Notes under the pieces: model-generated
The model's database searches: none
What the model was told of the DNA's origin: nothing
Seen by the model: the letters and a program-made list of their open reading frames with translations, nothing else
Part shown: one piece after another, positions 1-7,605 of the stretch
How positions within the stretch are numbered: position 1 is the stretch's first letter
Layout: every line of letters starts with the position of its first letter
Origin: a virus
Lineage: Duplodnaviria; Heunggongvirae; Uroviricota; Caudoviricetes
Virus record (IMG/VR): IMGVR_UViG_2693429676_000010
Location: 1-7,605 of that record
DNA length: 7,605 nt
Reading direction: 5' to 3' (one strand)
Position numbers and translations under genes: made by a program

Positions 1-73
1 CAAAGTGATCTACTATTCCGCGCAGCTATTTAGGAGTAGAGCGATAACGTGTTTTAATTCTGTCTCGTTCATT

Positions 74-229
74 TTACTCACCTGAATGTCTTCCCAACCA
101 ACGACGTGCGCCAGCTTCGGTTTTAAACGTTTTGCTTTTGGTATACGTCATGGCGGTGAATGTGCCGTCTTGATTGGGAAACACGCCACATACCAGAGAT
201 TCGTTGTTGCCAAGATCGATAGTATTCAT
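74..229 (-). CDS. small hypothetical prophage protein (51 aa from ATG at 229; the ORF extends to 292 only with a TTG start). Possibly YdaF-like, unverified
   Basis: ORF track 74..292 minus. Internal ATG at 227-229 is preceded by a GGGG Shine-Dalgarno-like run about 6 nt upstream, whereas the TTG at 292 has no recognisable RBS. Sits downstream of a terminator and a candidate promoter. No recognisable domain. Confidence 0.4.
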   Translation of the reverse strand: MNTIDLGNNESLVCGVFPNQDGTFTAMTYTKSKTFKTEAGARRWLGRHSGE

Positions 230-409
230 GTTGACCCCATTTCCCCTTAACGCCGGGTGGCGGAACGTTTTATCTACTGCGCTTTGTATCAATCAACAAC
301 TGCCGTCATGTTCGTATGCCTCAGGCTGGCTACTTAGCCCTGTTCAGTGACTGGATAACTCGAGGTATTGTCCTGCCGTTCTCTGGTGGGGCGTTGTTTG
401 GATATGCTT

Positions 410-438
410 ATTAAACACAATTTGTTTTCTTGTGTCAA
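410..438 (-). promoter_or_regulatory. candidate sigma70 promoter for the small leftward ORF (-35 TTGACA, 17-nt spacer, -10 TTTAAT on minus strand)
   Basis: Plus-strand TGTCAA at 433-438 is a perfect TTGACA on the minus strand; plus-strand ATTAAA at 410-415 is TTTAAT on the minus strand; the spacer 416-432 is 17 nt. Confidence 0.35.
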
Positions 439-479
439 CACGCAATGTGTTTTATGGTGAGTGTCATATGATGATGCTA

Positions 480-504
480 CAAAAAAGCCCGCTGATAGCG
501 GGCT
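480..504 (-). terminator. rho-independent terminator of the leftward repressor transcript
   Basis: Perfect 8-bp stem AGCCCGCT (486-493) / AGCGGGCT (497-504) with a 3-nt loop. The plus-strand A6 run at 481-486 is a U-tract directly after the stem on the minus strand. Located 30 bp past the repressor stop at 535. Confidence 0.65.
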
Positions 505-534
505 GATTGGCATATTACTGTGATAGCAAGATCA

Positions 535-954
535 TTATTCCGGTGGGGGATTATCTTTAATCCTGCCTCTCAAATATTTTTCTACATACTCATCGATTTC
601 TTTTAGCCGGACTTCAAATAGCTCAATCATTCGTTGTTGTTCTGAGCCCGGTAGCTGGTTAAACAACTCAAGAAGTTTTCGTTGGGATTCATTTAACCAC
701 AATTCAGAAGATTCCTGTTCTCCAAAGAGGAGCTCAGGAGGAGATATGCCAAGTGCCTTTCCCAATACGACAGCGTCATGTACTCCAACATTTCTGCTGC
801 CCGCCTCATAGTTACCTATACGCGATTGCGTCCATCCGCAGATTTCAGCAAGTTTTCCTTGAGATAAACCAAGCTTCTGCCTGCGCTCTTTAAGACGCAT
901 TGCAATTTTGTCATTGAGCCTACTAGCGGCAATTTTTTCGTTTTCTTTTTCCAT
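535..954 (-). CDS. prophage repressor, HTH XRE family (cI/RacR-type), 139 aa, no S24 peptidase domain
   Basis: ORF 535..954 minus. Helix-turn-helix signature LGLSQGKLAEICGWTQSRIGNYEAG in the N-terminal half; short helical C-terminal region; AAGGA RBS upstream on the minus strand; divergent from a Cro-like gene; followed by a terminator. Confidence 0.85.
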   Translation of the reverse strand: MEKENEKIAASRLNDKIAMRLKERRQKLGLSQGKLAEICGWTQSRIGNYEAGSRNVGVHDAVVLGKALGISPPELLFGEQESSELWLNESQRKLLELFNQLPGSEQQRMIELFEVRLKEIDEYVEKYLRGRIKDNPPPE

Positions 955-1050
955 TGCATCCTTGTATCACGAATCGTGATTTACATAAAACACAAAACAG
1001 CTTGGCTATATAACACAAGGTGTGTTTAAAATTGTCATCGGAGGTTTTCA
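955..1050. promoter_or_regulatory. divergent promoter/operator region between repressor and cro-like gene
   Basis: 96-bp AT-rich intergenic region containing a perfect 7-bp-arm palindrome ATCACGA-A-TCGTGAT (966-980) and an inverted repeat ACACA-AGG-TGTGT (1013-1025); TTTACA at 980-985 and TTGGCT at 1002-1007 are possible -35 elements. Exact promoter assignment not resolved. Confidence 0.5.
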
Positions 1051-1293
1051 ATGAACAAAATTTCAACATATCGAAAACAGCTTGGGCTGTCTCAAAGACA
1101 ACTTGCTGTTCAGTTAGGGTGGATACAAAGCCGACTGGCAAATTACGAAGCAAATTTTCGTACCCCTGGACTAGAGGAGTGCAGAAAAATTGTTTCTACC
1201 CTTAATCGGCTTGGCGCTCATTGTGGACTTGACGATGTATTCCCCCCAGACGGTAAGCATAGCGAAAACAGCATAGGAGCGGTTGATTCATGA
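1051..1293 (+). CDS. Cro-like HTH (XRE) transcriptional regulator, 80 aa
   Basis: ORF 1051..1293 plus. GGAGG RBS 6 nt upstream of the ATG; HTH signature LGLSQRQLAVQLGWIQSRLANYE; divergent from the repressor; its stop overlaps the next start (ATGA at 1290-1293). Confidence 0.8.
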   Translation: MNKISTYRKQLGLSQRQLAVQLGWIQSRLANYEANFRTPGLEECRKIVSTLNRLGAHCGLDDVFPPDGKHSENSIGAVDS

Positions 1294-1559
1294 AAATCAG
1301 GCATGAGCACATCGAATCAGTGTTGTTAGCCCTGGCAGCCGAAAAAGGGCAGGCGTGGGTCGCTAACGCAATTACTGAAGAATATCTGCGCCAGGGGGGC
1401 GGCGAATTGCCCCTTGTACCAGGCAAGGACTGGAACAATCAGCAGAATATCTATCACCGTTGGTTGAAAGGTGAAACGAAAGCGCAAAGGGAAAAAATTC
1501 AGAAACTGATCCCTGCGGTTCTGGCAATTCTTCCGCGNCGCTTGGCTCAGTGCGAATAA
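1290..1559 (+). CDS. ydaT: CII-like regulator (YdaT-type), copy 1, truncated: genuine homology ends at the N at 1538 and the last 7 codons are junction-derived
   Basis: The N-terminal 82 aa are near-identical to the 1994..2415 copy. From recall, resembles Rac prophage YdaT. The sequence after the N at 1538 is antisense of a RacR-like gene, so the stop at 1557-1559 is not the native one. Confidence 0.6.
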   Translation: MKIRHEHIESVLLALAAEKGQAWVANAITEEYLRQGGGELPLVPGKDWNNQQNIYHRWLKGETKAQREKIQKLIPAVLAILPXRLAQCE

Positions 1560-1706
1560 TCTTTTCCCCGCCGGCTGTGTTTCATCTCTTTCCCATTGAG
1601 AAATTGTTACGTGAGCCACTTTGACCAGCTTACCTAATGCGGCCTGAGACAGTTTTAATTTTTTACGCCTATGTAAGAGGCGAGCACCGAAGGTTTCGTT
1701 TTTCAT
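1539..1706 (-). pseudogene. racR: RacR-like HTH repressor, 5' fragment only (first ~56 codons), truncated at the N at 1538
   Basis: The minus ORF starts at ATG 1706 and reads MKNETFGARLLHRRKKLKLSQAALGKLVKVAHVTISQWERDETQ (HTH). Past the N it continues only as antisense of ydaT copy 1. Divergent from the ydaS-like gene, as in Rac. Symbol by recalled synteny. Confidence 0.55.
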
Positions 1707-1782
1707 ATTAGGGAATTCTAATTTTTCTTGACTTAGGTTTCTCTACGATCTAGTTTCCTTAGGAAAATCTAAGGAGCTCGAT
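1707..1782. promoter_or_regulatory. divergent regulatory region between racR-like and ydaS-like genes
   Basis: Minus-strand TAGAAT (plus ATTCTA 1715-1720) lies 8 nt upstream of the racR-like ATG with no SD, suggesting a leaderless transcript. TTGACT at 1728-1733. CTTAGG repeats at 1732-1737 and 1758-1763, CTAAGG at 1769-1774, and an inverted repeat TTTCC-TTA-GGAAA at 1754-1766. Confidence 0.4.
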
Positions 1783-2010
1783 ATGTTGAAAATTGATGCT
1801 ATAGCGTTTTTTGGCAGCAAAACAAAGCTTGCCAATGCCGCAGGAGTTAGGCTGGCAAGCATTGCTGCATGGGGGGAACTGGTTCCTGAAGGTCGCGCGA
1901 TGCGCCTGCAAGAGGCATCTGGCGGGGAACTTCAGTACGACCCCAAAGTTTATGACGAATATCGTAAGGCAAAACGACCTTGGAAGGTGATTCATGAAAA
2001 TCAGGCATGA
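1783..2010 (+). CDS. ydaS: YdaS-like Cro-type regulator, 75 aa
   Basis: ORF 1783..2010 plus. Strong RBS TAAGGAG 6 nt upstream; divergent from the racR-like gene; its 3' end overlaps the ydaT copy-2 start by 17 nt. Symbol from recalled Rac gene order. Confidence 0.75.
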   Translation: MLKIDAIAFFGSKTKLANAAGVRLASIAAWGELVPEGRAMRLQEASGGELQYDPKVYDEYRKAKRPWKVIHENQA

Positions 2011-2415
2011 GCACATCGAATCAGTGCTGTTGCCCTGGCAGCCGAAAAAGGGCAGGCGTGGGTCGCTAACGCAATTACTGAAGAATATCTGCGCCAGGGG
2101 GGCGGCGAATTGCCCCTTGTACCAGGCAAGGACTGGAACAATCAGCAGAATATCTATCACCGTTGGTTGAAAGGTGAAACGAAAGCGCAAAGGGAAAAAA
2201 TTCAGAAACTGATCCCTGCGGTTCTGGCAATTCTTCCGCGCGAGCTGCGTCACCGACTCTGCATCTTCGATACCCTGGAACGCCGTGCATTACTGGCGGC
2301 GCAGGAAGCGTTGAGTACGGCAATTGATGCGCATGATGATGCAGTCCAGGCCGTTTACCGGAAAGCGCATTTCAGCGGCGGCGGGTCTTCCGACGATTCT
2401 GTCATTGTTCATTAA
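1994..2415 (+). pseudogene. ydaT: CII-like regulator (YdaT-type), copy 2, about 140 codons, interrupted by a 1-nt deletion near codon 14
   Basis: Near-identical to copy 1, but GTTAGCC in copy 1 is GTTGCC here (around 2030), shifting frame from the ATG at 1994 into a stop at about 2168-2170. The ORF track recovers the remainder as 2110..2415 in another frame. Confidence 0.6.
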
Positions 2416-2478
2416 GCAAAAGTTTCCATGCTGTTTGTGCTTATTCTAAGCAACCGGGCAGCATCATACGGGGCAATT

Positions 2479-3627
2479 ATGGCCGCATTACCATACATGC
2501 AACTGTACATAGCTGATTACCTGGCTGACACCATGCATTTGTCAGCAGAGGAGCACGGCGCGTATTTGTTGCTGATGTTCAATTACTGGCAAACAGGAAA
2601 GCCAATACCCAAAAACAGGTTGGCAAAAATTGCCCGTCTGACTAACGAGCGATGGGTTGATGTTGAACCATCCTTGCGGGAGTTTTTTTGTGATAACGGC
2701 GACGAATGGATGCATCTTCGGATTGAGGAAGATCTGGCATCTGTCAGAGAAAAATTAACCAAAAAATCAGCCGCAGGAAAAGCATCTGTTCAGGCCAGAA
2801 GAAGCAGAAAGGAAGCAGATGTTCAAACAAAACAAGAGAGAAATTTAACAGGTGTTCAAACAGATGTTGGAGTGATGTTCGAACATGATGCCAACACAAA
2901 GGCAACTAATAAAGATACAGATAAAGATCTAAAAACAGATCTAACCCATCCCAAACCCTTCCCTTCCGGAAGGGAGTTTCGGGATTTTGTGGCTGGAGTG
3001 CTTGAGGGGAGATTATCTGGCGGTACTGCAGCGGAATTTTGTAATTCTGCGGTGGTTGCGTTGCAGGCTGCTGGCCTGGATGTCTGTCGTGAGTATCCGG
3101 TGCCAGAGCGTGGTGACGGTTGCGGAGGGCGGATTGATATCGTCGTGACTGACAGGAACGGTGTCCGGTGTGGGAGCGAGCTTGACCGAAATTCTCCGCG
3201 ACAGAAATCACTGCTCAAAATCGGTGCTGTTGAAACCGGGATATGTGTCTTGCGGCGCAGTGATATCGCAAGGCACACCGAGCAGGGAATTCTGGTTATC
3301 GGTGGGGCTGTTCGCCAGAAAAAATTTGACCCGTTGTCAGTTGATCTGCCCGACTGGTTGCCAGAAACACTCTGGCATGAGTGGGTCCAGTTCAGGCAGG
3401 CATTGCGAAAACCGATTCGAACGGAGCAGGGCGCTAACGGGGCGATACGGGAACTGGAAAAATTCCGTCAGCAGGGTTTTACACCTGAGCAGGTGATTCG
3501 ACACAGCATCGCCAATGAATACCAGGGCCTGTTCGCGCCGAAAGGTGTTCGGCCTGAGACGTTGCTCCGACAGGTTAACACCGTCTCGTTGCCGGACAGT
3601 GCGATCCCGCCAGGCTTCAGGGGGTAA
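2479..3627 (+). CDS. replication initiator / replisome organiser, N-terminal DUF1376 (YdaU-like), 382 aa from ATG 2479 (the ORF extends to 2428)
   Basis: ORF 2428..3627 plus. The conserved DUF1376-like N-terminus PYMQLYIADYLADTMHLSAEEHGAY sits 5 residues after the ATG at 2479, so I prefer that start. Low-complexity linker encoded by repeats; C-terminal domain conserved in the other copies; stop overlaps the SD of the DnaC-like gene. Confidence 0.8.
   Translation: MAALPYMQLYIADYLADTMHLSAEEHGAYLLLMFNYWQTGKPIPKNRLAKIARLTNERWVDVEPSLREFFCDNGDEWMHLRIEEDLASVREKLTKKSAAGKASVQARRSRKEADVQTKQERNLTGVQTDVGVMFEHDANTKATNKDTDKDLKTDLTHPKPFPSGREFRDFVAGVLEGRLSGGTAAEFCNSAVVALQAAGLDVCREYPVPERGDGCGGRIDIVVTDRNGVRCGSELDRNSPRQKSLLKIGAVETGICVLRRSDIARHTEQGILVIGGAVRQKKFDPLSVDLPDWLPETLWHEWVQFRQALRKPIRTEQGANGAIRELEKFRQQGFTPEQVIRHSIANEYQGLFAPKGVRPETLLRQVNTVSLPDSAIPPGFRG
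2787..2946. other. candidate phage origin of replication embedded in the initiator gene (iteron-like repeats plus AT-rich tract)
   Basis: TGTTCA at 2787-2792; TGTTCAAACA at 2820-2829 and 2853-2862; palindromic TGTTCGAACA at 2876-2885 (spacings 33, 33, 23 bp). Followed by a roughly 75% AT tract at 2906-2945 with two AGATCT/GATC sites (2925-2930, 2937-2942). Analogous to lambda ori inside gene O. Confidence 0.45.
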
Positions 3628-3633
3628 CAGACC

Positions 3634-4380
3634 ATGAAAAATATTGCGACAGGAGGCGTTCTGGAGCGTATCCGCAGACTGACCCCACCACATGTAACCG
3701 CCCCATTCAGAACGGTTGCGGAGTGGCGCGAGTGGCAACTTGCTGAAGGCCAGAAACGTTGCGAGGAGATCAACCGCCTGAATCGTCAGTTGCGGGTGGA
3801 AAAAATCCTGAACCGCTCCGGCATCCAGCCGTTGCACCGGAAGTGTTCGTTTGCGAATTACCGGGCGCAGAACGACGGTCAGCGACATGCACTGAGTCAG
3901 GCGAAATCCATAGCTGACGAACTGATGACAGGCTGTACGAATTTTGTGTTCAGCGGTAAGCCCGGCACCGGAAAAAATCATCTTGCAGACGCGATTGGCA
4001 ACCGGCTGATGGCGAAGGGGCGTAGCGTGATTATCGTCACCGTGTCCGATGTCATGAGCGTGTTGCATGAGAGCTACGACAACGGCAAATCCGGTGAAAA
4101 ATTTTTACAGGAGCTTTGTGGTGTTGACCTGCTGGTCCTGGATGAAATTGGCATGCAGCGGGATACGAAAAACGAGCAGGTGGTACTGAACCAGATTGTT
4201 GATCGCCGGACGGCATCGTTACGCGGTGTGGGGATGCTGACAAATATTAACCATGCAGCGATGAATACACTTCTCGGCGAGCGGGTGATGGATCGCATGG
4301 TCATGAACGGCGGGCGCTGGGTGAATTTTAACTGGGAGAGCTGGCGTCCGAATGTTAGCCATTCGAGGGTTGTTAAGTAG
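3634..4380 (+). CDS. ydaV: DnaC-like helicase loader (AAA+ ATPase, YdaV-type), copy A, 248 aa
   Basis: Walker A GKPGTGKN at 3955-3978, as in E. coli DnaC; Walker B DLLVLDEIG; C-terminal LGERVMDRM motif; GGGG SD overlapping the upstream stop, suggesting translational coupling. Symbol by recalled Rac synteny. Confidence 0.9.
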   Translation: MKNIATGGVLERIRRLTPPHVTAPFRTVAEWREWQLAEGQKRCEEINRLNRQLRVEKILNRSGIQPLHRKCSFANYRAQNDGQRHALSQAKSIADELMTGCTNFVFSGKPGTGKNHLADAIGNRLMAKGRSVIIVTVSDVMSVLHESYDNGKSGEKFLQELCGVDLLVLDEIGMQRDTKNEQVVLNQIVDRRTASLRGVGMLTNINHAAMNTLLGERVMDRMVMNGGRWVNFNWESWRPNVSHSRVVK

Positions 4381-4394
4381 TTTCAGGAGGATTT

Positions 4395-4620
4395 ATGGCG
4401 AAACCTTTTACTCCCGAACAGCGGGAAGAACTGAAGACGCGAATTGTGGAACTCGTGCATCAGGACGGTCGGGTCACGATTCGGCAGTTGTCAGATGAAA
4501 CAGGTATCAGTCGTGCGTCTGTCGGTCGCTTATGCATAGAACTGGTCGCAAGTGGTGATGTATATAATTCTGGCTACGGGGTATTTCCCTCTGAACAGGC
4601 TCGCAAGGACTGGCAAAGCG
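4395..4620 (+). CDS. small putative DNA-binding protein (HTH-like, YdaW-like), 5' portion; interrupted by the N-run at 4621
   Basis: AGGAGG RBS 6 nt upstream of ATG 4395; HTH-like stretch VTIRQLSDETGISRASVGRLCIELVASGDV. The ORF-track continuation through the Ns into (RG)n is an artefact of reading through the gap. Confidence 0.6.
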
Positions 4621-4637
4621 NNNNNNNNNNNNNNNNN
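4621..4637. other. run of 17 N (assembly gap or masked bases)
   Basis: Directly visible. Flanking sequences are not contiguous in homology. Confidence 0.95.
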
Positions 4638-4638
4638 A

Positions 4639-4680
4639 GAGGAAGAGGAAGAGGAAGAGGAAGAGGAAGAGGAAGAGGAA
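4639..4680. repeat. hexanucleotide microsatellite (GAGGAA)x7 immediately after the N-run
   Basis: Seven perfect tandem GAGGAA units at 4639-4680. Not in frame with any credible gene. Confidence 0.9.
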
Positions 4681-4694
4681 GATCTAAATACTGA

Positions 4695-5030
4695 TCTCCC
4701 CCTCGCCAAAAACGAGCGTCTAAAAAATTCGAGCCGGAGGCTATTGAGCTGCCCGATTGGTTGCCGGAAACACTCTGGCATGAGTGGGTCCGGTTCAGAC
4801 AGGCATTGCGAAAACCGATTCGAACGGAGCAGGGCGCTAACGGGGCGATACGGGAACTGGAAAAATTCCGTCAGCAGGGTTTTACACCTGAGCAGGTGAT
4901 TCGACACAGCATCGCCAATGAATACCAGGGCCTGTTCGCGCCGAAAGGTGTTCGGCCTGAGACGTTGCTCCGACAGGTTAACACCGTCTCGTTGCCGGAC
5001 AGTGCGATCCCGCCAGGCTTCAGGGGGTAA
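4695..5030 (+). CDS. 3' fragment of a second, diverged initiator gene (C-terminal domain only), copy B
   Basis: In-frame stop at 4692-4694, then 111 codons. From LPDWLPETLWHEW onward it matches the copy-A C-terminus almost exactly (one Q-to-R change); upstream of about 4745 the sequence is unrelated to copy A. No upstream initiator body is present in the window. Confidence 0.5.
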   Translation, partial: SPPRQKRASKKFEPEAIELPDWLPETLWHEWVRFRQALRKPIRTEQGANGAIRELEKFRQQGFTPEQVIRHSIANEYQGLFAPKGVRPETLLRQVNTVSLPDSAIPPGFRG

Positions 5031-5036
5031 CGGACC

Positions 5037-5783
5037 ATGAAAAATATTGCGACAGGCGGCGTTCTGGAACGCATCCGCCGACTGACCCCGCCACATGTAA
5101 CCGCCCCATTCAGAACGGTAGCGGAGTGGCGCGAGTGGCAACTTGCTGAAGGCCAGAAACGTAGCGAGGAGATCAACCGCCTGAATCGCCAGTTGCGGGT
5201 GGAAAAAATTCTGAATCGCTCAGGCATCCAGCCGTTGCACCGTAAATGCTCGTTTGCGAATTACCAGGTGCAGAACGACGGCCAGCGATACGCGTTAAGC
5301 CAGGCGAAATCCATCGCCGATGAACTGATGACCGGGTGTACAAATTTTGCGTTCAGCGGAAAACTTGGTACCGGGAAGAATCACTTAGCGGCAGCTATCG
5401 GGAATCGCCTGCTGAAAGACGGTCAGACAGTGATTGTGGTTACCGTGGCTGATGTTATGAGCGCCCTGCACGCCAGCTATGACGACGGGCAGTCAGGCGA
5501 AAAATTTTTGCGGGAGCTGTGCGAAGTGGATCTGCTGGTTCTTGATGAAATTGGCATTCAGCGCGAGACGAAAAACGAGCAGGTGGTGCTGCACCAGATT
5601 GTTGATCGCCGGACAGCGTCGATGCGCAGCGTGGGGATGCTGACAAACCTGAACTATGAGGTGATGAAAACATTGCTCGGCGAGCGGGTGATGGATCGCA
5701 TGGTCATGAACGGCGGGCGCTGGGTGAATTTTAACTGGGAGAGCTGGCGTCCGAATGTTAGCCATTCGAGGGTTGTTAAGTAG
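5037..5783 (+). CDS. DnaC-like helicase loader, copy B (diverged paralog/allele), 248 aa
   Basis: Same length and architecture as copy A. About 30 of 248 residues differ by manual alignment; the nucleotide differences I checked in the first 66 nt are all synonymous. Walker A reads GKLGTGKN (P to L). Confidence 0.85.
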   Translation: MKNIATGGVLERIRRLTPPHVTAPFRTVAEWREWQLAEGQKRSEEINRLNRQLRVEKILNRSGIQPLHRKCSFANYQVQNDGQRYALSQAKSIADELMTGCTNFAFSGKLGTGKNHLAAAIGNRLLKDGQTVIVVTVADVMSALHASYDDGQSGEKFLRELCEVDLLVLDEIGIQRETKNEQVVLHQIVDRRTASMRSVGMLTNLNYEVMKTLLGERVMDRMVMNGGRWVNFNWESWRPNVSHSRVVK

Positions 5784-5797
5784 TTTCAGGAGGATTT

Positions 5798-5995
5798 ATG
5801 GCGAAACCTTTTACTCCCGAACAGCGGGAAGAACTGAAGACGCGAATTGTGGAACTCGTGCATCAGGACGGTCGGGTCACGATTCGGCAGTTGTCAGATG
5901 AAACAGGTATCAGTCGTGCGTCTGTCGGTCGCTTATGCATAGAACTGGTCGCAAGTGGTGATGTATATAATTCTGGCTACGGGGTATTTCCCTCT
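5798..5995 (+). CDS. YdaW-like small HTH gene, 5' portion, truncated at the N at 5996
   Basis: Identical to the start of the 4395 copy, with the same AGGAGG RBS; homology ends at the N. Confidence 0.55.
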
Positions 5996-5996
5996 N

Positions 5997-6095
5997 CTGT
6001 TCGCGCCGAAAGGTGTTCGGCCTGAGACGTTGCTCCGACAGGTTAACACCGTCTCGTTGCCGGACAGTGCGATCCCGCCAGGCTTCAGGGGGTAA
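5997..6095 (+). CDS. 3' tail (last ~32 codons) of the initiator gene, copy C, beginning at the N junction
   Basis: Matches 3529-3627 of copy A, ending in the same TAA and SD context. Confidence 0.45.
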   Translation: MFAPKGVRPETLLRQVNTVSLPDSAIPPGFRG

Positions 6096-6101
6096 CAGAC
6101 C

Positions 6102-6848
6102 ATGAAAAATATTGCGACAGGAGGCGTTCTGGAGCGTATCCGCAGACTGACCCCACCACATGTAACCGCCCCATTCAGAACGGTTGCGGAGTGGCGCGAG
6201 TGGCAACTTGCTGAAGGCCAGAAACGTTGCGAGGAGATCAACCGCCTGAATCGTCAGTTGCGGGTGGAAAAAATCCTGAACCGCTCCGGCATCCAGCCGT
6301 TGCACCGGAAGTGTTCGTTTGCGAATTACCGGGCGCAGAACGACGGTCAGCGACATGCACTGAGTCAGGCGAAATCCATAGCTGACGAACTGATGACAGG
6401 CTGTACGAATTTTGTGTTCAGCGGTAAGCCCGGCACCGGAAAAAATCATCTTGCAGACGCGATTGGCAACCGGCTGATGGCGAAGGGGCGTAGCGTGATT
6501 ATCGTCACCGTGTCCGATGTCATGAGCGTGTTGCATGAGAGCTACGACAACGGCAAATCCGGTGAAAAATTTTTACAGGAGCTTTGTGGTGTTGACCTGC
6601 TGGTCCTGGATGAAATTGGCATGCAGCGGGATACGAAAAACGAGCAGGTGGTACTGAACCAGATTGTTGATCGCCGGACGGCATCGTTACGCGGTGTGGG
6701 GATGCTGACAAATATTAACCATGCAGCGATGAATACACTTCTCGGCGAGCGGGTGATGGATCGCATGGTCATGAACGGCGGGCGCTGGGTGAATTTTAAC
6801 TGGGAGAGCTGGCGTCCGAATGTTAGCCATTCGAGGGTTGTTAAGTAG
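6102..6848 (+). CDS. ydaV: DnaC-like helicase loader, copy C (protein identical to copy A)
   Basis: The ORF-track translation is identical to 3634..4380; the whole unit is offset by 2468 bp from copy A. Confidence 0.85.
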   Translation: MKNIATGGVLERIRRLTPPHVTAPFRTVAEWREWQLAEGQKRCEEINRLNRQLRVEKILNRSGIQPLHRKCSFANYRAQNDGQRHALSQAKSIADELMTGCTNFVFSGKPGTGKNHLADAIGNRLMAKGRSVIIVTVSDVMSVLHESYDNGKSGEKFLQELCGVDLLVLDEIGMQRDTKNEQVVLNQIVDRRTASLRGVGMLTNINHAAMNTLLGERVMDRMVMNGGRWVNFNWESWRPNVSHSRVVK

Positions 6849-6862
6849 TTTCAGGAGGATTT

Positions 6863-7231
6863 ATGGCGAAACCTTTTACTCCCGAACAGCGGGAAGAACT
6901 GAAGACGCGAATTGTGGAACTCGTGCATCAGGACGGTCGGGTCACGATTCGGCAGTTGTCAGATGAAACAGGTATCAGTCGTGCGTCTGTCGGTCGCTTA
7001 TGCATAGAACTGGTCGCAAGTGGTGATGTATATAATTCTGGCTACGGCTTATTCCCGTCTGAACAGGCTCGCAAGGACTGGCAAAGCGCCCGCAAAAAAC
7101 TCTCGAGAGTAAAGGTGAGGAAACCGGTTGTTGTTGATCCGGACCTTATCTGGTCATTACCTGACGGAGAAATACGCCGCTACGACAGGCGCCTGAATAT
7201 AATCTGTCGCGAGTGCCGGAAGAGCGAAGCT
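6863..7231 (+). CDS. YdaW-like small HTH gene, longest copy (123 codons before the N at 7232; native 3' end not determinable)
   Basis: Same start and RBS as the other copies, with a GVFP to GLFP variant near 7045. The continuation past the N is junction-derived. Confidence 0.6.
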
Positions 7232-7233
7232 NT

Positions 7234-7605
7234 ATGGCGAAACCTTTTACTCCCGAACAGCGGGAAGAACTGAAGACGCGAATTGTGGAACTCGTGCATC
7301 AGGACGGTCGGGTCACGATTCGGCAGTTGTCAGATGAAACAGGTATCAGTCGTGCGTCTGTCGGTCGCTTATGCATGGAACTGGTCGCAAGTGGTGATGT
7401 ATATAATTCTGGCTACGGGGTATTTCCCTCTGAACAGGCTCATAAAGACTGGCAAAACGCCCGCAAAAAGCTATCGAGGGTAAAGGTGAAGAAACCGGTT
7501 GTGGTTGATCCTGACCTTATCTGGTCATTACCAGACGGAGAAATACGCCGCTACGACAGGCGCCTGAATATAATCTGTCGCGAGTGCCGGAAGAGCGAAG
7601 CTATG
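7234..7605 (+). CDS. YdaW-like small HTH gene, further variant copy starting right after the N; open to the window end
   Basis: ATG at 7234-7236, no stop through 7605. Several substitutions relative to the 6863 copy (for example I to M at 7378, R to H and S to N around 7441-7456). Preceded by coding sequence, not by the usual RBS, so the placement is likely an assembly join. Confidence 0.45.
   Translation, partial: MAKPFTPEQREELKTRIVELVHQDGRVTIRQLSDETGISRASVGRLCMELVASGDVYNSGYGVFPSEQAHKDWQNARKKLSRVKVKKPVVVDPDLIWSLPDGEIRRYDRRLNIICRECRKSEAM

Follow-up and report, generated by a model that had tools for sequence, protein, structure and literature searches.

Here we describe a candidate origin of replication located inside ydaU, the DUF1376-type initiator gene of a Rac-type lambdoid prophage of Escherichia coli. 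The DNA analysed is a viral stretch of 7,605 nucleotides (IMG/VR record IMGVR_UViG_2693429676_000010, positions 1 to 7,605), hereafter called the window, which is a scaffold of short Rac-type prophage contigs with runs of N at 1538, 4621-4637, 5996 and 7232. The candidate origin lies on the contig at 1539-4620, which comprises four genes; ydaU is followed there by ydaV, its partner in the replication module. Sequence comparison identifies the DUF1376 gene as Rac ydaU: over ~510 bases at the 5' end and ~290 bases at the 3' end it is 96% identical to ydaU of E. coli K-12 MG1655, and an additional in-frame segment of ~400 bp separates these two K-12-like parts. The encoded parts follow one another as the DUF1376 N-domain (amino acids 1 to ~113), a linker encoded by the candidate origin, the inserted module, and a C-terminus resembling that of DnaT.

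Repeats and AT-rich tract within ydaU

The replication module and the element within it comprise the following features (repeats and tract are given without strand):

2479-3627, plus strand: ydaU-type initiator gene (DUF1376); the open reading frame opens at 2428, and the ATG at 2479 (MAALPYMQLY...) is the start common to the homologues
2643-2683: remnant of upstream array A, inside the coding region of the predicted recognition helix, with one good site, TGTTGAAC, at 2661-2668
2787-2796: weak copy TGTTCAGGCC, a half-site, absent outside Escherichia and Citrobacter braakii
2818-2829: extra iteron copy GATGTTCAAACA, found in Rac-type genes only, an 11-nucleotide gain relative to other genera
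2851-2898: array B, the main group of iterons; TGTT/AACA dyads form the cores of its four tandem units of 11-13 bp
2851: array B unit 1, GGTGTTCAAACA
2863: array B unit 2, GATGTTGGAGT
2874: array B unit 3, GATGTTCGAACAT
2887: array B unit 4, GATGCCAACACA
2904-2944: A-rich/AT-rich tract AACTAATAAAGATACAGATAAAGATCTAAAAACAGATCTAA, candidate DNA-unwinding element, with two AGATCT/GATC sites (2925-2930 and 2937-2942)
3634-4380, plus strand: ydaV, DnaC-type helicase loader and partner gene of the replication module, with an IstB/DnaA ATPase match and an alignment to DnaC

A preliminary description of this DNA had listed four copies of a short motif, and all four were recovered at their positions: TGTTCAGGCC at 2787, TGTTCAAACA at 2820 and 2853, and TGTTCGAACA at 2876. 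A search of the 7.6-kb window for the dyad pattern TGTTNNAACA gave three matches, which cluster within 66 bp (2820-2885); the expectation from shuffled sequences is 0.17, and none of 200 shuffles reached three. The array is best read as four tandem units, plus the extra copy 33 bp upstream of them at 2818, and a 32-bp imperfect dyad (2865-2896) lies within array B. The description of two of the listed copies needs correction. Only half a site is present at 2787, with a first base that is polymorphic in Rac-type genes, and this copy probably does not function as a repeat; the perfect palindrome at 2876 exists in the window but is the less common allele, as TGTTTGAACA stands in its place in K-12 and the majority of Rac-type sequences. 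The first three copies share one frame (SVQA, DVQT and GVQT), and the fourth is read in another (MFEH). The repeats encode amino acids 114-141 and the tract amino acids 142-155, after the modelled N-domain (end of its helix at about amino acid 113) and before the C-terminal domain.

The AT-rich tract of about 40 bp that had been noted after the repeats has a G + C content of 27.5% at 2900-2939. The lowest-GC stretch of 40 nucleotides in the entire window falls at about 2904-2944, the coding strand of the tract shows a strong excess of A, and both AGATCT sites were found where they had been placed (2925 and 2937). No match to the DnaA box (TTWTNCACA, at most one mismatch) occurs between 1793 and 3476, so that nothing in this interval corresponds to a DnaA-dependent, oriC-type origin, and scans for IHF sites and promoters gave no match in the region of the repeats and the tract. 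None of these elements thus suggests a different reading of the region. The bottom strand of the tract may resemble the GATCTnTTnTTTT 13-mers of oriC. In enteric hosts, which are Dam-positive, the AT tract tends to collect GATC sites, with up to three in Serratia and Pantoea loci (homologous tracts of L013, L021 and L023); the tract of the window has two, 12 bp apart, and the tracts of Pseudomonas have one or none.

Related loci and codon usage

Comparison was based on about 110 related loci. A tblastn search of phage genomes with the N-domain yielded 35 records, and a scan of one genome per species added 80 loci from Escherichia, Citrobacter, Kluyvera, Enterobacter, Klebsiella, Pantoea, Serratia, Rahnella, Pseudomonas, Propionivibrio, Methylococcaceae and Alphaproteobacteria. 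A plain protein search returned just near-identical E. coli sequences; the diversity was drawn from tblastn and from the scans of genomic and viral loci. In three isolated Pseudomonas phages among the 35 records, a 55-70% identical gene is flanked by genes of the cI/cro/cII type on one side and by a gene for a DnaC-like loader on the other.

In the gamma- and betaproteobacterial genes, three to four copies of a dyad unit with the consensus G-N-N-C-GTT-S-AAC-G are located at nucleotides ~355-400 and are followed by AATAAAGATACAGATACAGATCTAAAAGA or a close variant. Most relatives have the form CGTT-S-AACG, and the TGTT-NN-AACA of Rac is, by this comparison, a diverged form in which both half-sites have changed symmetrically. 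Counts of the half-site CGTTSA/TSAACG at 21 loci of other genera average 3.3 per locus at gene nucleotides 350-399 and 2.3 per locus at nucleotides 150-199, against a background of 0.06 per 50 nucleotides in ~98 kb of flanking sequence (37- to 54-fold enrichment). Of 21 spacings measured in array B, 19 equal 11 or 22 bp. Spacing by 11 bp or its multiples leaves the repeats on one face of the helix and makes the copies fall in all three reading frames; exact GTTSAAC copies were found in codon phases 0, 1 and 2 inside single genes.

The upstream group of half-sites forms a separate array. In other genera, array A is made up of three CGTTG(A/G)A units with a spacing of exactly 11 bp in all 23 cases, and it is situated ~185 bp upstream of array B within the region encoding the N-domain. 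It runs across the codons for ...DRW..VE.SLK..., and its fixed codons (CGT TGG / GTT GAA / TCG TTG) stand in three frames. The site TGTTGAAC at 2661-2668 of the window, which carries the T flank of the Rac type, lies outside the interval covered by the preliminary description.

Codon choice in the GATACAGAT-type tract is uniform, as all 147 codons for D, T, K and P end in A or T. When the D-x repeat is delimited from the protein sequence, its D codons are 81 GAT and no GAC, and the codons for T (47), K (10) and P (9) end in A or T without a single G or C. In the remainder of the same genes, codons for D, T and P end in G or C about half the time or more (Fisher, 5e-24 and 4e-20), and the invariant residues Asp13, Asp17 and Thr18 of the same 26 sequences have mixed codons. 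This codon usage rules out that the tract is conserved merely for the D-T-D peptide. When the GC windows of each 5-kb locus are ranked, the tract falls among the lowest 0-2% at nearly all loci, including those of Pseudomonas and Azotobacter hosts of 56-66% GC, in which the codon choice holds as well.

Variation within the population was assessed in 82 Rac-type sequences. One of the 35 sites of the AT tract is variable, and variation in the iteron region spares the TGTT/AACA cores (2 of 40 positions variable, as opposed to 14 of 43 spacer positions outside the cores; p = 0.0017). The comparison of homologues that had been proposed as a check thus found the repeats conserved beyond what the amino-acid sequence needs: they keep the same position in the gene, occur in three codon phases and at multiples of 11 bp, and precede a tract with A/T-ending codons only. 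Because of this phasing, the positional enrichment and the choice of codons, repeats and tract are, on the sequence evidence, kept as DNA and not as protein from E. coli to Pseudomonas. The earlier suggestion that the DNA of the linker is constrained as a cis site agrees with the codon phases, the tests at synonymous sites and the variation in the population. In L008 and L009 (E. coli ECMA0423 and Shigella flexneri SFBU1023), from about 2916 onward, an IS2 element is located inside the iteron array, directly after ...CATGATGC; it parts the repeats from the AT tract and shortens the gene to 196 amino acids.

Distant homologues have different 9-mers at the same position of the gene, again spaced by 11 bp and followed by a tract of lower G + C content with hexamer periodicity. 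Alphaproteobacteria have AGCAATGCT, GCAATCGCA and CGCAATGCG, whereas TGCGAACGC, GCTGCGGCA and CGTATTACG occur in other distant lineages; the sequence of the repeats co-varies with the lineage of the initiator. A sister class (class 2; L032-L035 and L038) combines DUF1376, T5orf172 and DnaT domains. Its DUF1376 domain is 75-81% identical to that of Rac, but its genes contain no GTTSAAC at all and instead have clusters of CGTAG/CTACG at gene nucleotides 400-480 and 584-655, with the GATACAGAT tract again downstream of them. Compared with class 1, to which Rac belongs, the layout (array, ~190 bp, array, AT tract) is therefore conserved and the repeat sequence swapped. A residue-by-residue comparison of Rac with class 2 gave 4 of 15 identical residues at amino acids 54-68, as opposed to ~94% identity at amino acids 1-53; this divergence may fit either the predicted recognition helix or the coding site of the upstream array.

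Initiator, helicase loader and surrounding genes

The match of YdaU to Pfam PF07120 (E = 7e-25; 87.6 bits, gathering cut-off 30.1) places it in the DUF1376/YdaU family. The N-domain models as a winged helix with a predicted recognition helix at residues 56-67 (H56-67), and the nearest folds are the winged helices of replication initiators, such as the initiator of a staphylococcal multiresistance plasmid (4pta), the N-domain of DnaD and the winged helices of ORC/Cdc6. Repeats of the CGTT type accompany the same clade of N-domains across at least four unrelated types of C-terminal domain. The constancy of the repeat type with this clade suggests that the repeats are read by the N-domain, and the proposal that this domain is the iteron binder is plausible in view of the modelled fold. 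A code relating residues of the recognition helix to the repeats was sought across the distant homologues and could not be read, as the helix is too variable. Eight metagenome proteins (P0160, P0168, P0182, P0189, P0194, P0204, P0207 and P0223) combine DUF1376 with HNH endonuclease domains (PF01844, PF14279).

The C-terminus of YdaU aligns with the C-terminal domain of DnaT in a phmmer search against PDB (2ru8, E = 1.9e-4; also 9zbt), and its tail PDSAIPPGFRG resembles the tail PDSQIPPGFRG of DnaT. The Pfam model of DnaT (PF17948) stayed below threshold on YdaU of the window and was detected on the class 2 relatives. The C-terminal part also matches phrog_678 ('replication initiation O-like', E = 1.9e-23). 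YdaV aligns over its full length with E. coli DnaC (6qel, E = 1.7e-74). The remaining features of ydaU and of the contig are:

1783-2010: ydaS-like
2110-2415: ydaT
2941-3339, plus strand: inserted module, absent from K-12 ydaU, matching phrog_1347 (unknown function) and starting at the 3' edge of the AT tract
3346-3624, plus strand: C-terminal domain resembling the C-terminus of DnaT, with the tail given above; presumed contact to helicase or loader

In a complete genome with the same allele, the native gene order is repressor, cro-like, ydaT, ydaU, ydaV and DUF977. The insert at 2941-3339 has no match among the solved structures in PDB or in Pfam; it shares 41% identity with a portion of the 'replication protein O' from Providencia phage PSTCR7lys. 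An insert-bearing ydaU in E. coli FDAARGOS_944 is called as two pseudogene pieces by the NCBI pipeline, yet its open reading frame is intact.

Several segments of the window are present two or three times. There are three copies of ydaV (3634-4380, 5037-5783 and 6102-6848; two identical, one variant), 3' ends of ydaU and the 5' end of ydaT are also duplicated, and 1290-1537 and 1994-2240 are among the repeated segments. These duplications probably reflect several Rac-like prophages within one draft genome. A run of the (GAAGAG)n type adjoins the gap of 17 N.

Interpretation and known origins

Positions 2640-2945 of the window very probably form a cis-acting replication origin of this Rac-type lambdoid prophage, placed inside its own initiator gene. 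Phased dyad repeats and an AT tract, which by the above tests are under selection at the level of the DNA, lie within the initiator gene of a module with a DnaC-type loader. In the mechanism we propose, the winged-helix N-domain would let dimers of YdaU bind the repeats; the dimers would then assemble into an oligomer on the array and might form a bridge to array A, ~185 bp upstream. This assembly would strain and open the adjoining AT tract, whereupon the DnaT-like C-terminal domain would recruit the host helicase DnaB in complex with YdaV, the DnaC-like loader, in the manner of lambda O and the P-DnaB complex. Where the host is Dam-positive, methylation or SeqA may exert further control through the GATC sites of the tract.

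Several observations speak against an origin at this site. The iteron region of the Rac-type sequences has, taken as a whole, more variable sites (18.9%) than the coding part of the N-domain (10.9%), and array A of Rac is largely decayed, with one good site left. No such repeats were seen in the short DUF1376 genes of the Bradyrhizobium type, which means that the arrangement is common in the DUF1376 family but not universal. A recent preprint calls Rac replication-deficient.

A more elaborate form of this origin is possible, and we put it forward only tentatively. It would be bipartite and self-referential, with array A in the codons of the initiator's own recognition helix (amino acids 54-68) and array B ~185 bp downstream beside the unwinding tract. 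The segment encoding the helix and both arrays would be exchanged together as a specificity cassette, as the contrast between class 1 and class 2 suggests, and the initiator would bridge the arrays, wrapping or looping the DNA.

The element might instead be an origin whose repeats are read by another part of YdaU, by another phage protein of the operon or by a host factor, with DUF1376 in a general role such as oligomerisation, melting or binding of single strands. The N-domain of class 2, highly similar to that of Rac yet accompanied by quite different repeats in the same two-array layout and by an additional T5orf172 domain, weighs against the N-domain as binder and in favour of such a reader. 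This alternative nevertheless appears unlikely, since class 1 proteins have no further recognisable DNA-binding domain, the repeat type follows one N-domain clade irrespective of the C-terminal type, Rac and class 2 differ mostly in the segment that contains the predicted recognition helix, and the fold of the N-domain is that of an initiator-type winged helix. That the repeats are a mere by-product of a low-complexity linker (VQT and DTD repeats), with no function as DNA, is almost certainly wrong. The shared frame of the first three Rac copies and the constant reading of the GATACAGAT tract as D-T-D would agree with it, but it does not survive the tests of reading frame and of synonymous sites: the copies are spread over all three frames in homologues and in the window (the fourth copy of which is read differently), and the tract avoids the mixed codon usage found elsewhere. 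Moreover, the array in the folded N-domain has fixed rare codons (TCG TTG) in class 1, at a place where class 2 encodes conserved residues (W59, L66, E68, FF) with different codons.

A function in cis other than initiation is improbable, be it as autoregulatory operators of the replication operon or as a junction that promotes recombination between N- and C-terminal modules in mosaic phages. Conserved boundary sequences at the module junctions of lambdoid phages have been proposed, and the AT tract is situated exactly where the C-terminal modules change and where the insert of the window begins. Against this, phased dyads and a meltable tract in an initiator gene beside a helicase loader are the signature of an origin, the repeats change along with the lineage of the initiator, for which a recombination linker would have no need, and the region has no promoter-like site. 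It is also very improbable that the true origin of Rac is located elsewhere, for instance within ydaV. The 'oriJ' PCR primers of PMC3945230 do anneal in K-12 ydaV (L001, 13122-13276), ~700 bp downstream of the candidate origin, but they were used as a copy-number probe only. The primer site carries no information on the position of the origin, and the amplicon has 50-57% GC and contains neither a repeat array nor an AT-rich tract. The sole extended low-GC stretch in K-12 ydaU-ydaV (33-37% GC, ~150 nucleotides) is the tract described here.

Rac has been reported to carry an active origin, oriJ (PMC3945230), and oriJ has been reported to drive plasmids. Fine mapping of oriJ or its placement on the sequence was not found in the openly readable literature, which also has very little on the function of DUF1376 or ydaU. 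The element belongs to the same type of prophage and the same replication region, and most likely it is the sequence basis of oriJ. If confirmed, this would give a sequence address to an origin of K-12 that has been known genetically since the late 1970s, and a function, as origin-binding initiator domain, to a Pfam domain found widely among the prophages and phages of Proteobacteria. A further outcome would be a recognisable origin signature (repeats of the CGTT-S-AACG type with 11-bp phasing, followed by a GATACAGAT-type tract), which could be used to annotate phage origins and to build replicons for Pseudomonas and enteric hosts, and the codon-level evidence would be a clear case of a coding sequence shaped by an overlapping function of the DNA.

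The proteins of the module resemble the DnaT-DnaC system of the primosome and of replication restart, with a C-terminus of YdaU similar to DnaT and YdaV similar to DnaC. The order of ydaU and ydaV mirrors that of dnaT and dnaC in the host. DnaT differs in that it has no DUF1376 domain and no known sequence-specific origin.

The closest parallel to the DNA element is ori-lambda of phage lambda and the Stx phages (lambda O/P initiation scheme and layout of ori-lambda, PMC7466680), and the lambda-type arrangement of iterons and an AT-rich tract proposed in the preliminary description holds. In both systems the known or candidate origin occupies the central part of the initiator gene, which encodes the linker between domains; direct repeats with internal dyad symmetry occupy a near-identical position (nucleotides 342-420 of ydaU, as compared with nucleotides 349-433 of O for the annotated lambda iterons); an AT tract that is A-rich on the coding strand follows directly downstream; and the next gene encodes the partner that recruits the helicase. 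As in Stx phages, additional iterons lengthen the protein. The repeats themselves differ, being units of 9-12 bp with 11-bp phasing in ydaU and iterons of 18 bp spaced by 20-24 bp in ori-lambda, and relatives of YdaU have a second array ~185 bp upstream within the coding region of the N-domain. The proteins differ as well, since YdaV is a paralogue of DnaC and not of the lambda P type, and BLASTP detected no similarity between YdaU and lambda O (E = 1.9), Pfam giving DUF1376 only, which places YdaU outside the O family. The features of a lambda-style origin found here are the position inside an open reading frame, at least three phased dyad repeats, an adjoining AT tract, constraint at the level of the DNA and co-variation with the initiator lineage. 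The element would thus represent an origin built on the plan of lambda, with iterons and an unwinding element, in a non-homologous family of initiators that employs shorter repeats, 11-bp phasing and usually two arrays.

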